Position numbers: made by a program. A DNA stretch of 41,846 nucleotides, from positions 1 to 41,846 of the IMG/VR virus record IMGVR_UViG_2778261638_000003; one strand, written 5' to 3'. This stretch comes from a virus. Its lineage: Duplodnaviria > Heunggongvirae > Uroviricota > Caudoviricetes. Positions 24,001 to 27,000 of the stretch are shown here, in pieces. Numbering within the stretch: position 1 is the first letter of the stretch; every line of letters begins with the position of its first letter.

Positions 24001-27000
24001 CTTGTCATTGTCATTCCTTTTGCGGAGCCGTCAGCCAAGGCTCTTATTCATTGTTCACACAGTGTCCGATCACTGGAGGGCTGAGGTTGTATTTTAACAA
24101 TGGATAAAGCGCATAAAAACCAGGATATTCAACCAGTAAGCGACAAAATGAGTATTGTCCGTTGCATTACACCAGCCCTTCCGTGAGGGGCTGCGATAAT
24201 GTCAAAGCTCGCCATCGGCACCCGCCGCGCACCCAGCGCACTGGCCGATAGCGGGCTTTTTTATTCACAAAGCGAGTCTGTATGAGCGAGAAATTGAAGA
24301 TCGTCTATCGCCCGTTACAAAAACTGTCTCCATATGCGCACAACGCCAGGACCCACAGTCCTGAGCAGGTGGCTCAACTGGTAGAAAGCATTAAGCAATT
24401 TGGCTGGACTAATCCAGTGCTGATTGACGAAAAGGGCGAAATTATTGCTGGTCACGGTCGCGTTATGGCGGCTGAAGTGCTCAAAATGGATTCCGTTCCG
24501 GTCATTGTTTTGTCTGGCCTGAAGGAGGATCAGAAAAAGGCTTATCGCCAGGCAGATAATCGTCTGCCGCTTAACGCTGGCTGGGATGAAGATCTGTTAC
24601 GGATGGAACTGTCAGAGCTAATCAATGCTGATTTTGATATCTCCCTGACAGGATTCAGCCAAACAGAAATTGACGAACTGTTGACGGAAGTTTTGCCGGG
24701 CACCGGAACTGAGGAGGAGCCGTACACGACGAAAATTGATACGCCTGTTTATGAGCCGTCAGGCGATAAACCGGATATCGGCGAACTGTACGACGATACG
24801 AAAACTCAGGAACTGGTCAGCCGGATACGTTCGGCGTCCCTTGATCCTGATATCGAAAAATTCCTCCTGTGTGCAGCAGAGCGTCACACGGTGTTTGATT
24901 TCAGCAGAATTGCGGACTATTACGCTCACGCCCCCGCTGAAATTCAGCACCTTTTTGAGGAGTCGGCGCTGGTGATCATTGATTATCAGCAGGCCATTGA
25001 AAATGGATTTGTCCGGATGACGCAACGCATGGTGGAGATCATGCACGGCGGGGAGGAGGAATATGCGTGATGATTTTTGCGCCTTTATTCTGACTCACGG
25101 GCGACCGGACAAAGTTCTGACTTACCGGACATTACGTCGAGCTGGCTATACCGGTAAAATTTTTATCGTCGTTGATGATGAAGATAAAACCCGGCATCAG
25201 TACACAGCTGAATTTGGTAAACAGGTGTTGGTGTTTTCTAAAGCCGATATCGCCAGTCGTTTTGACGAAGCCGATAATTTCGGTGACCGTCGCTCAATTT
25301 TTTACGCACGTAATGCCTGCTTCGACCTGGCAAAACAGGTCGGGTGTAAATACTTCATTCAGTTCGATGATGATTATCATGAGTTCCAGTTTCGGGTGGA
25401 TCACAACTATGACCAGGCCTATTTCCCGATAAGGAAACTGGACGCAATCCTTTCTGAAATGCTGGCGTATTACGAATCAATTCCTGCGCTTTCCATCGCT
25501 ATGTCGCAGGGCGGGGATTTTCTTGGTGACAATGGCGGCCATGCTTCATGGGTGAAACGCAAGGCAATGAACAGCTTTATCTGTTCGGTTGAGCGACCGT
25601 TCTCATTCATGGGGCGCATTAACGAGGATGTGAATACTTACACGAATCTCGGTCGCCGTGGTGAATTGTTTATGACGATTGGTGCTGTCCAGTTGGGACA
25701 GAAACAGACGCAGAAAAACAGCGGCGGAATGACCGAGCTGTATCTGGATACCGGAACCTACGTTAAAAGTTTTTACTCCGTCATGTATGCGCCCTCGTGC
25801 GTAAAAATCTCACTGATGGGGGCCAGCCATAAACGCATTCACCATCAGGTCACCTGGAACAACGCTGCAGTAAAAATCCTTAACGAAAAATACAGGAAGA
25901 AGACACCCTGCATACCAATGGGGGTGACAAATGATTCCGTATTCGAAAGTCGAGTCTCTGGCTGCGTGCCGGATGACCGCACAACAAATCGCTGATGTTC
26001 TGGATGTTGATCTGAACCGACTGAAAGAAAATCGGGAAGCAATGACAAATTTTTACGCATCCATCCGTAAGGGAAGAGCGAAAGGTGAAGCCGAGCTACG
26101 AGCCGCATTGTTTAAGCTTGCCAGAAAAGGGGATGCCTTTGCTCTGCGTGAGTTACTCAGGGTGGATAAAAATCAGGACTAACTGATGAACAGACCGGAC
26201 TGGGGGGCGTTGCAGCAGGAATATATTGCTGAATACACCCGTTCCGGTATATCTCCGGTTGCATGGTGTGAAGCAAGGGGACTGAATTACGCAACAGCCC
26301 GTCGTTACATCAAAAAACCTCCGAAAAATGCGCAGACAGAAGTGCGCAAAACTGCGCAAAAAAGTGCGCGAAAAAAAACTGCGCAGACTGCGCAAAAGCG
26401 GAACAGAAAATCTCAGAAAAAAAAGACGGTATCCGATGCCTTCCTGATTAAGAGTGGCGCGGAGGAGATTTCATTCTGTCCCGATGAATTCGGCATTTCT
26501 GACCAGCAGGCAAAATTCGCCATGCTGGTTGCCCAGGGTAAAAACCTTATCGATGCATACCGCCTGGCGGGTTACGAGGGGACGGGAAACGTAGCAAGTG
26601 CCGCAGCTTCCCGCCTGTTAAGAAATGTTAAGGTTTATCGGGCTATCTCATGGTTCCGCAATCAGTACCAGAAACGCTATACCGCAGACCTGGATTTACT
26701 AGTGAGTCAGTTGATGGCCATTGTTCAGGCCGACCCCAATCAGTTGGCGCAATTTCGCCGTGTTAACTGCCGTTATTGCTGGGGCGAGAATCACCTCTAC
26801 CAGTGGCGCGATATAGCAGAATTCGACAAGGCAGCGGCACAGGCCTCCAGAGATGGCAAACCTGAACCTGAATATGGTGGCCTCGGGTTTGTTGATAACG
26901 CCATACCCAATTCGGACTGCCCGAAGTGCTGCGGTGAGGGAACAGGGCAGCTTTATATGGCCGATACCACTCTGCTTGATGGGGATGTACGGCAATTATA

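Follow-up and report, generated by a model that had tools for sequence, protein, structure and literature searches.

The TET-associated glycosyltransferases (TAGT, Pfam family PF20691) were reportedly defined by Iyer et al. in 2013 (NAR 41:7635). The phage member of this family that is known biochemically adds the second glucose in T2 and T6 (PMC13216743), and all characterised DNA enzymes of the family need either a 5-hydroxymethyl pyrimidine or a sugar already present on one (PMC13216743; bioRxiv 10.1101/2023.12.21.572611). 'Solitary' TAGTs, whose function was called undefined, occur in 288 of the 753 phage genomes that encode such transferases (PMC13216743), and about 65% of glycosyltransferase contigs are without a neighbouring dioxygenase or thymidylate synthase (bioRxiv 10.1101/2023.12.21.572611). 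Phage DNA-modification genes often have genes for ParB-like proteins and terminases beside them (bioRxiv 10.1101/2023.12.21.572611; PMC13229309); a ParB-like protein that has a nucleotide-binding domain and a C-terminal domain and no helix-turn-helix (HTH) is required by a subclass of phage thymine dioxygenases on double-stranded DNA (PMC13229309), and fusions of ParB with DNA methyltransferases are enriched in prophages (PMC12704722). An earlier proposal, as relayed in PMC8256090 and PMC13229309, has ParB proteins directing the modification machinery to DNA during packaging. The stretch analysed here, referred to as the window, comprises positions 1 to 41,846 (41,846 nucleotides) of virus record IMGVR_UViG_2778261638_000003 and is a Rac-like lambdoid prophage of Escherichia coli, of which positions 20000-30000 match strain WY517-2 (locus L001) at 99.9% identity. 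Between its toxin/lysis region and its terminase genes lies a two-gene cassette, the subject of this report, in which a ParB-like partner gene (24282-25070, plus strand) is followed by a TAGT-family GT-A glycosyltransferase gene (25063-25995, plus strand).

The initial annotation of the window had singled out these two genes as a candidate undescribed system, a claim that stands in part. The protein families are known and annotated, and ParB-like and terminase genes have already been listed beside phage DNA-modification genes; on the other side, a literature search (ynaK/ydaY, GREB1 with phage, PF20691, and the phages named below) found no experimental study of a ParB-TAGT pair, and the C-terminal domain of the partner has no family model. 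The cassette does not amount to a new category of system: it represents a subclade of TAGT whose partner domain is obligate and still unnamed, and which has no source of hydroxymethyl pyrimidine.

The glycosyltransferase and its partner protein

The second gene of the cassette (ATG start, 310 aa) had been regarded as unassigned, a label that falls away: RefSeq/PGAP names its product 'GREB1-related protein', and the protein matches PF20691 with 124.8 bits (gathering cut-off 27.5, E 5.8e-36) from aa 8 to aa 222, equivalent to profile positions 4-205 of 205, and also phrog_842 (3.8e-101). Judged by these profile matches, it is clearly a TAGT family member, with intact catalytic residues. The motifs FIVVDDED (aa 34-41) and QFDDDYHEF (aa 100-108), from which a transferase with no methyltransferase motif had been surmised, are both present and are recognisable as two acidic motifs of the GT-A type, so that PF20691 agrees with that surmise. 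In an alignment of 10 TAGT homologues from enterobacterial, Lactobacillus and haloarchaeal viruses, R14, D41, D102-D103-D104, N187, D189 and H260-H261 are invariant and E188 is nearly so; D38, with D41, and E188, with D189, are also counted among the invariant positions. Phage DNA GT-A enzymes are reported to bear the signature R…DDD…ED(Y/F) (bioRxiv 10.1101/2023.12.21.572611), with which this pattern agrees.

The AlphaFold2 (AF2) model of the TAGT (predicted template modelling score, pTM, 0.71) has a confident Rossmann-like alpha/beta GT-A core, with low confidence at residues 218-287. Foldseek places it nearest to generic GT-A enzymes in the PDB (such as SpsA, GpgS and COLGALT1, E about 2e-5) and, among the viral models of BFVD, nearest to TAGT-domain proteins, the T-even-type beta-glucosyl-hydroxymethylcytosine (HMC)-alpha-glucosyltransferase ranking only 23rd at 13% identity; a sequence search for a solved structure of the TAGT gave no match. 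A match to a well-characterised family unrelated to DNA modification would have spoken against the initial annotation; Pfam and Foldseek led instead to TAGT. The C-terminal region is subclade-specific and basic (isoelectric point, pI, 9.6), and with this region of its own and its obligate partner domain the enzyme is placed by sequence in a distinct and very conserved subclade. By analogy with the T6 TAGT and the base-J glucosyltransferase (JGT), it is probably a metal-dependent, inverting enzyme with a UDP-hexose donor.

The partner (RefSeq name ynaK, ATG start, 262 aa) consists of a ParB nucleotide-binding domain with a short helical 'LTGF' segment (aa 1-143, 24282-24710), a disordered acidic linker, and a conserved, unnamed C-terminal TAGT-partner domain of about 115 aa (aa 145-262, 24714-25067). 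The ParB domain that the initial annotation had seen at its N-terminus is borne out by Pfam ParB_N (27.2 bits, borderline in view of the cut-off of 26.3), by phrog_620 (4e-86 over aa 1-250) and by profile matches to the CTP-binding structures of ParB, Spo0J and Noc (5e-11). The residues that bind nucleoside triphosphates (NTPs) are kept, G57/R60 aligning with GERRxRA and D92-N93 with EN, and the predicted local distance difference test (pLDDT) of the AF2 model is 77-92 for aa 11-90. The same part of the protein matches phrog_498, which contains ParB-DNA methyltransferase fusions (1.4e-50, aa 3-141), and the PADLOC model MTase_II (PDLC03229; 1.2e-36, aa 8-143), and from these alignments aa 1-143 are recognisable as the module that is fused to DNA methyltransferases in other phages. 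This module was the sole match in PADLOC-DB v2, neither the TAGT nor the C-terminal domain matching any defence system there. A canonical partition ParB was considered and rejected: no HTH family of Pfam matched the partner, TIGR00180 scored 34.7 against a cut-off of 58.45, and the RefSeq annotation of the 99.9%-identical locus lists no ParA (the search did not extend to parS). Among solved structures, a sequence search matched the ParB domain of the partner alone, and a shallower alignment (A3) gave no match at 1e-6.

In an alignment of 13 partner sequences from bacterial and archaeal viruses, all 22 invariant columns fall in the C-terminal domain. An invariant linear motif, Y-x-x-K-x-x-x-P-x-Y-E-P (Y148-T149-x-K151…P155-x-Y157-E158-P159), lies in the linker, which AF2 predicts to be disordered at aa about 137-169, and is followed by a helical domain (…AA-x-RH-x-x-F…IA-x-YY…Q-x-L-x-E-x-SALVIID…). 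The C-terminal domain (its part without a model being aa about 146-250) is strongly acidic and matched nothing in Pfam, NCBIfam, PADLOC or the sequences of the PDB, its pLDDT is 30-80, and no sequence match to the ParB dimerisation domain was found in the PDB or in family models. RefSeq calls the ynaK gene of strain WY517-2 a C-terminally incomplete pseudogene (L001 24183-24440, equivalent to 24282-24539 of the window); the 262-aa ORF is intact and conserved in that strain (L001 24183-24971), and the call probably arose because the gene was modelled on the 87-aa YnaK remnant of E. coli K-12.

The stop of the partner gene and the start of the TAGT gene overlap by 8 nt (ATGCGTGA, 25063-25070, plus strand), in the context ...GAGGAATATGCGTGA..., with a GAGGA Shine-Dalgarno-like element just 5' of the second ATG, an arrangement that is consistent with translational coupling of both genes. 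Neither open reading frame (ORF) arose by chance: the ratio of nonsynonymous to synonymous substitution (dN/dS) against relatives is 0.05-0.15 for both genes (about 0.12 for the partner), which are thus under purifying selection. Among the IMG/VR relatives, of which the best 80 loci were examined, and the other related loci, the partner gene is on the same strand and directly 5' of the TAGT gene, its stop overlapping the start, in all 88 loci that have upstream sequence; overlaps as a rule range from a few nt up to some tens, certain lengths being inflated by longest-ORF start calls. The pairing is far beyond chance and is obligate, and the initial annotation was right to treat the two genes as one unit. 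When 43 non-redundant loci were clustered by BLAST, only the two cassette genes were common to nearly all (40 and 35 loci), and no third conserved gene was found among them; next in frequency, at a distance of two to four genes on the downstream side, came large terminases, which belong to four or more unrelated families.

The gene order is kept in the Lactobacillus phages c5 (ORF1/ORF2, the first genes after cos) and phi jlb1, in Nocardia phage NTR1, in a Porphyromonas phage (TAGT identity only 26%) and in the haloarchaeal virus HHTV-2 (TAGT identity 41%), identities being 40-47% in most of the lineages concerned, whose hosts span Proteobacteria, Firmicutes, Actinobacteria, Bacteroidota and haloarchaea. 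The pair is thus a portable cassette of viruses of bacteria and archaea. Of 5,426 complete E. coli genomes, 889 contain the pair at a coverage of 80% or more, and 1,561 contain remnants; ynaK of E. coli K-12 is a 5' remnant (254 nt) of the partner gene in the defective Rac prophage. K-12 ydaY was considered as a remnant of the transferase gene and rejected, YdaY being without similarity to TAGT.

The constant partner of the TAGT is the C-terminal domain rather than the ParB domain. Searched alone against 1.84 billion representatives, the C-terminal domain was found in 1,188 (at 50% clustering); in the best 150 of these it lies at or near the C-terminus, mostly of proteins of 250-310 aa, and some of the best 150, at 128-200 aa, are too short to contain a full ParB domain, some of them possibly as fragments. 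Domain-only proteins are encoded directly 5' of TAGT genes in a locus denoted L061 and in Vibrio jumbo phages. A 534-aa fusion protein (P0321), found on three independent contigs (L090 214-1818, L091 26-1630 and a 16.6-kb JGI contig), joins a divergent TAGT paralogue to a ParB domain and the C-terminal domain, and its gene is followed by an overlapping gene for a standard 292-aa TAGT and by a large terminase gene, with a Dam methylase gene two genes upstream. Across 37 loci, TAGT divergence correlated with that of the C-terminal domain (r = 0.63) more than with that of the ParB domain (r = 0.26), a comparison that is supportive only, because locus pairs are not independent.

In L061 (7015-9525), the 134-aa domain-only protein and the TAGT occur in tandem twice, with genes for an N6/N4 DNA methylase and a DnaB-like helicase upstream. 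The Vibrio jumbo phages (VB_VaC_SRILMA and relatives, about 195 kb; L093 4459-5888) encode a 139-aa domain-only partner and a TAGT, and the genes of this pair are flanked by the exonuclease/primase and helicase genes of the replication module, away from the terminase.

These distributions bear on the possibility that the ParB-like protein assists the terminase, as a nuclease or as a pac-site factor, and that the transferase is a passenger moron gene. ParB-like 'nuclease' genes are indeed common beside terminase genes, and the pair of the window is directly upstream of terS and terL. Such a packaging accessory is nevertheless very improbable, as the two genes stay paired whichever of at least four unrelated families the large terminase belongs to, and do so too in a replication module without a nearby terminase, and the constant element is the C-terminal domain, co-varying with TAGT and sometimes fused to it, rather than ParB.

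Acceptor and proposed mechanism

By Pfam scans and the RefSeq annotation of the 99.9%-identical locus, the window encodes no TET/JBP dioxygenase, no thymidylate-synthase-like hydroxymethylase and no DNA methyltransferase, and it contains neither genes of a hydroxymethylcytosine (hmC) pathway (dCMP hydroxymethylase, alpha-glucosyltransferase) nor a C5-methyltransferase gene. None of the enzymes first named is annotated in the complete 31.8-kb genome of phage c5, which has no unassigned ORF longer than 209 aa. The 60 upstream proteins of 42 non-redundant loci included no dioxygenase or thymidylate-synthase-like hydroxymethylase among their 25 best families, weak relatives (E > about 1e-12) being possible; they belong to recombination, replication, antitermination and lysis families, with a few DNA methylases and one protein resembling phosphoadenosine phosphosulfate (PAPS) reductase. 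The acceptor cannot be 5-hydroxymethylcytosine (5hmC) or 5-hydroxymethyluracil (5hmU) made by the phage.

The modified base might instead be supplied in trans, the TAGT extending sugars on 5hmC, 5hmU or glucosyl-5hmC in the DNA of another element, such as a superinfecting T-even-like phage or a co-resident system. The only biochemically established phage activity of PF20691 is the beta-glucosyl-HMC-alpha-glucosyltransferase of T2 and T6 (PMC13216743), under which name PHROG 842 files the 310-aa protein. The T-even enzymes are distant, however: a tblastn search at 1e-8 returned 34 phage records, none of them of T-even type. The cassette is moreover situated in the late/packaging operon of temperate and small virulent phages of diverse hosts, a haloarchaeal virus included, and the strong purifying selection and the dedicated partner argue for a function in cis, so that a substrate in trans is improbable.

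The reading preferred here, tentatively and at somewhat less than an even chance, is that the cassette is a two-protein, late-expressed nucleic-acid glycosylation module with a non-hydroxymethyl acceptor on DNA. The 310-aa GT-A enzyme would transfer a sugar to phage DNA, while the C-terminal domain of the partner would bind or activate the transferase and the ParB domain, gated by NTP, would keep the enzyme on double-stranded DNA or direct it there, a role modelled on that in phage thymine dioxygenases and, presumably, in the fused DNA methyltransferases. The cassette would be transcribed with the packaging genes, and newly replicated phage DNA would therefore be decorated late, shortly before or during packaging; after injection, the decorated DNA would resist the nucleases of the next host cell. 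A DNA-modification or anti-restriction role linked to packaging, as the initial annotation had proposed, is accordingly the best reading here too, the acceptor and the benefit both remaining putative. Four considerations favour a DNA acceptor, namely the enzyme family, a ParB module otherwise linked to methyltransferases, the precedent set by the dioxygenases, and the requirement that the target be universal: a cassette so widely spread across unrelated terminases and host domains must have a target found everywhere, as DNA is. The neighbours of the cassette are DNA-handling genes, mostly terminases, with exonuclease, primase and helicase genes in the Vibrio jumbo phages. A more specific form of this proposal, in which the TAGT and its C-terminal-domain partner self-sufficiently glycosylate canonical DNA without a preceding hydroxymethylation step, be it at an unmodified base, in the backbone or at a terminus, is conceivable and rather doubtful.

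Several observations weigh against a DNA acceptor. No acceptor is evident, a source of hydroxymethyl pyrimidine being absent from the window, from c5 and from the set of upstream proteins; no DNA-binding domain can be recognised in the partner, a strongly acidic protein (pI about 4.6); the literature search found no report of modified DNA in cassette-bearing phages; the AF2 models are poor exactly in the C-terminal domain of the partner and the C-terminal region of the TAGT; and the TAGT-like domain of GREB1 glycosylates a protein (PMC7968844).

The last point, an O-GlcNAc transfer (PMC7968844), also supports the main rival, according to which a protein hydroxyl is glycosylated, most economically in the partner's own Tyr/Thr motif, and the modified protein acts in packaging or counter-defence. 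The invariant Tyr, Lys and Pro of the partner are found in a segment that AF2 predicts to be disordered, the Foldseek neighbours of the TAGT include enzymes that modify proteins or peptides (COLGALT1, SunS/ThuS, POMGNT1 and glycogenin), a hydroxymethyl base would be unnecessary, and a substrate that travels with its enzyme explains the portability between hosts as well as DNA does. On the other hand, a protein acceptor leaves unexplained both the ParB module, elsewhere fused to DNA methyltransferases, and the constant placement of the cassette among DNA-handling genes; a docking peptide would account for the invariant motif equally well, and no downstream role is apparent for a glycosylated partner. 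This rival is considered unlikely, though it is less so than the others.

The nucleotide-binding domain suggests one more possibility, namely that RNA, a nucleotide or a nucleotide-derived immune signal is glycosylated and that the ParB domain is an NTP- or ligand-binding module. The ParB fold can accommodate CTP, ATP or GTP and is also used by enzymes that do not act on DNA, among them Srx and SerK (PMC12704722), and such targets would be universal with no hydroxymethyl base needed. There is, however, no precedent in the TAGT family, the late-operon site by the terminases fits DNA better than an early counter-defence, and the ParB domain is dispensable in lineages that have the C-terminal domain alone; there is accordingly only a slim chance that this explanation applies.

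If canonical DNA is glycosylated, the cassette would represent a DNA modification chemistry not yet described, which temperate phages carry in roughly one E. coli genome out of six and which bacterial and archaeal viruses share. Glycosylation of DNA without a hydroxymethyl handle would account for the large group of 'solitary' phage glycosyltransferases to which two recent studies assigned no function, and would extend the role of ParB-like activators from dioxygenases to glycosyltransferases. Restriction enzymes may be ineffective against cassette-bearing phages, type IV restriction systems may detect such phages, and their modified DNA may alter nanopore or PacBio signals. If, instead, the partner protein is the acceptor, the cassette would be a new phage protein-glycosylation system. 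The current product names 'beta-glucosyl-HMC-alpha-glucosyltransferase', 'GREB1-related' and 'partition protein' are misleading. The cassette is tractable, with two genes, inducible Rac-like prophages of E. coli and small cultured Lactobacillus phages.

The cassette within the prophage

The prophage begins with an integrase gene (1-1236, minus strand), followed by recET, immunity, replication, lysis, packaging, head and tail genes. Downstream of the cassette are the genes of the small terminase (26186-27280) and the large terminase (27252-28562), both on the plus strand and matching Pfam Terminase_2, Terminase_6N and Terminase_6C and PHROG 51, 2 and 10250. Between the TAGT gene, whose 3' end it overlaps, and the small terminase gene is a small plus-strand ORF of 83 aa (25931-26182; RefSeq start 25973, product hypothetical) that resembles a small-terminase segment (phrog_309, 2.5e-22) and recurs at the +1 position in 7 enterobacterial-type loci; it belongs to the packaging module, outside the cassette. 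A C-terminal extension of about 20 aa in the E. coli TAGT (aa 288-310) overlaps this ORF, and homologues of 283-295 aa are without it.

Upstream of the cassette, about 1.6 kb separating it from the toxin genes (22703-24282) is without a convincing plus-strand gene. This interval contains a terminator-like hairpin on the plus strand (23437-23462) and, on the minus strand, an ORF of 79 aa (23799-24038) followed by a strong terminator-like hairpin (23774-23751). An Rfam scan of 22000-26500 gave no match, and promoter-like sites did not exceed their frequency in shuffled sequence.

The late region also includes AB5 toxin and LT-II operons (within 18477-19789 and 21566-22703). The first toxin pair is subtilase/pertussis-like AB5, annotated by RefSeq as a binding subunit and EplA, and the second is the A subunit, with a KDEL end, and the B subunit of an LT-II-type enterotoxin; LT-II and similar toxins are known from full-length Rac-like prophages (PMC5917428). 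In the replication region, next to a lambda-P-like gene, a 429-aa protein (9804-11093) has an unusual combination of DUF1376, T5orf172/MUG113 (GIY-YIG-like) and DnaT DNA-binding domains. The early region of the window (1-16000) differs from that of the otherwise near-identical WY517-2 prophage (L001 1-16000), which encodes an anti-phage dGTPase and a hydrolase of the MBL fold. The late region, cassette included, is common to both prophages and the early region is not, which points to mosaic exchange.

Comparison with known systems

Like the ParB of canonical ParABS systems, the partner has an N-terminal fold with GxxR and (D/E)N motifs. Like GREB1, the 310-aa protein has a TAGT-type domain, according to the alignment in PMC7968844 and the RefSeq name, no direct comparison with GREB1 having been made here. 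GREB1 itself is a large multidomain cytoplasmic animal protein that O-GlcNAcylates the estrogen receptor ER-alpha (PMC7968844); unlike GREB1, the 310-aa protein contains no other GREB1 domain, and the name is silent on its substrate.

The cassette enzyme shares with phage TAGT enzymes the Pfam family, the GT-A fold, the R…DDD…ED pattern and the vicinity of ParB and terminase genes. It differs from them in that neither the window nor related complete genomes provide a dioxygenase, a hydroxymethylase, a C5-methyltransferase or a transferase for the first sugar. Orthology to the T2/T6 enzyme was considered and rejected, given that no T-even record was returned by tblastn, that identity is 13%, and that no hmC pathway is present in the window; because the T-even enzymes are remote and hmC genes are lacking, the product name of PHROG 842 is an over-annotation for the cassette subclade. 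The trypanosome base-J glucosyltransferase is a more distant counterpart of the cassette TAGT.

The thymine dioxygenase pair 5mYOX176/ParB176 (PMC13229309) resembles the cassette in that a ParB-like protein with a nucleotide-binding and a C-terminal domain and no HTH is encoded beside an enzyme of modifying type. The cassette enzyme, unlike 5mYOX176, is a glycosyltransferase and not an iron- and 2-oxoglutarate-dependent (Fe/2OG) dioxygenase, and the C-terminal domain of the cassette, unlike that of ParB176, also occurs without any ParB domain; in that study, glycosyltransferases went mainly with ParB-independent dioxygenases (PMC13229309). With the ParB-methyltransferase fusions (phrog_498; MTase_II, PDLC03229) the partner shares homology over its first 143 aa or so (1e-36 to 1e-50), whereas it has no methyltransferase domain by Pfam, has another C-terminal domain, and is accompanied by a separate glycosyltransferase.

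In two loci, L035 (6912-9014) and the like-organised L043, three extra genes lie directly 5' of the ParB-like gene; in L035 these encode proteins of 196 aa (weakly MptE-like), 302 aa (weakly similar to GT9 heptosyltransferases) and 205 aa (Methyltransf_23), and they may be sugar-tailoring additions to the cassette. Such transferase-like genes, which are GT9-like, Methyltransf_23 or a second TAGT in the loci that add them, resemble the multi-enzyme DNA-glycan clusters of bioRxiv 10.1101/2023.12.21.572611.

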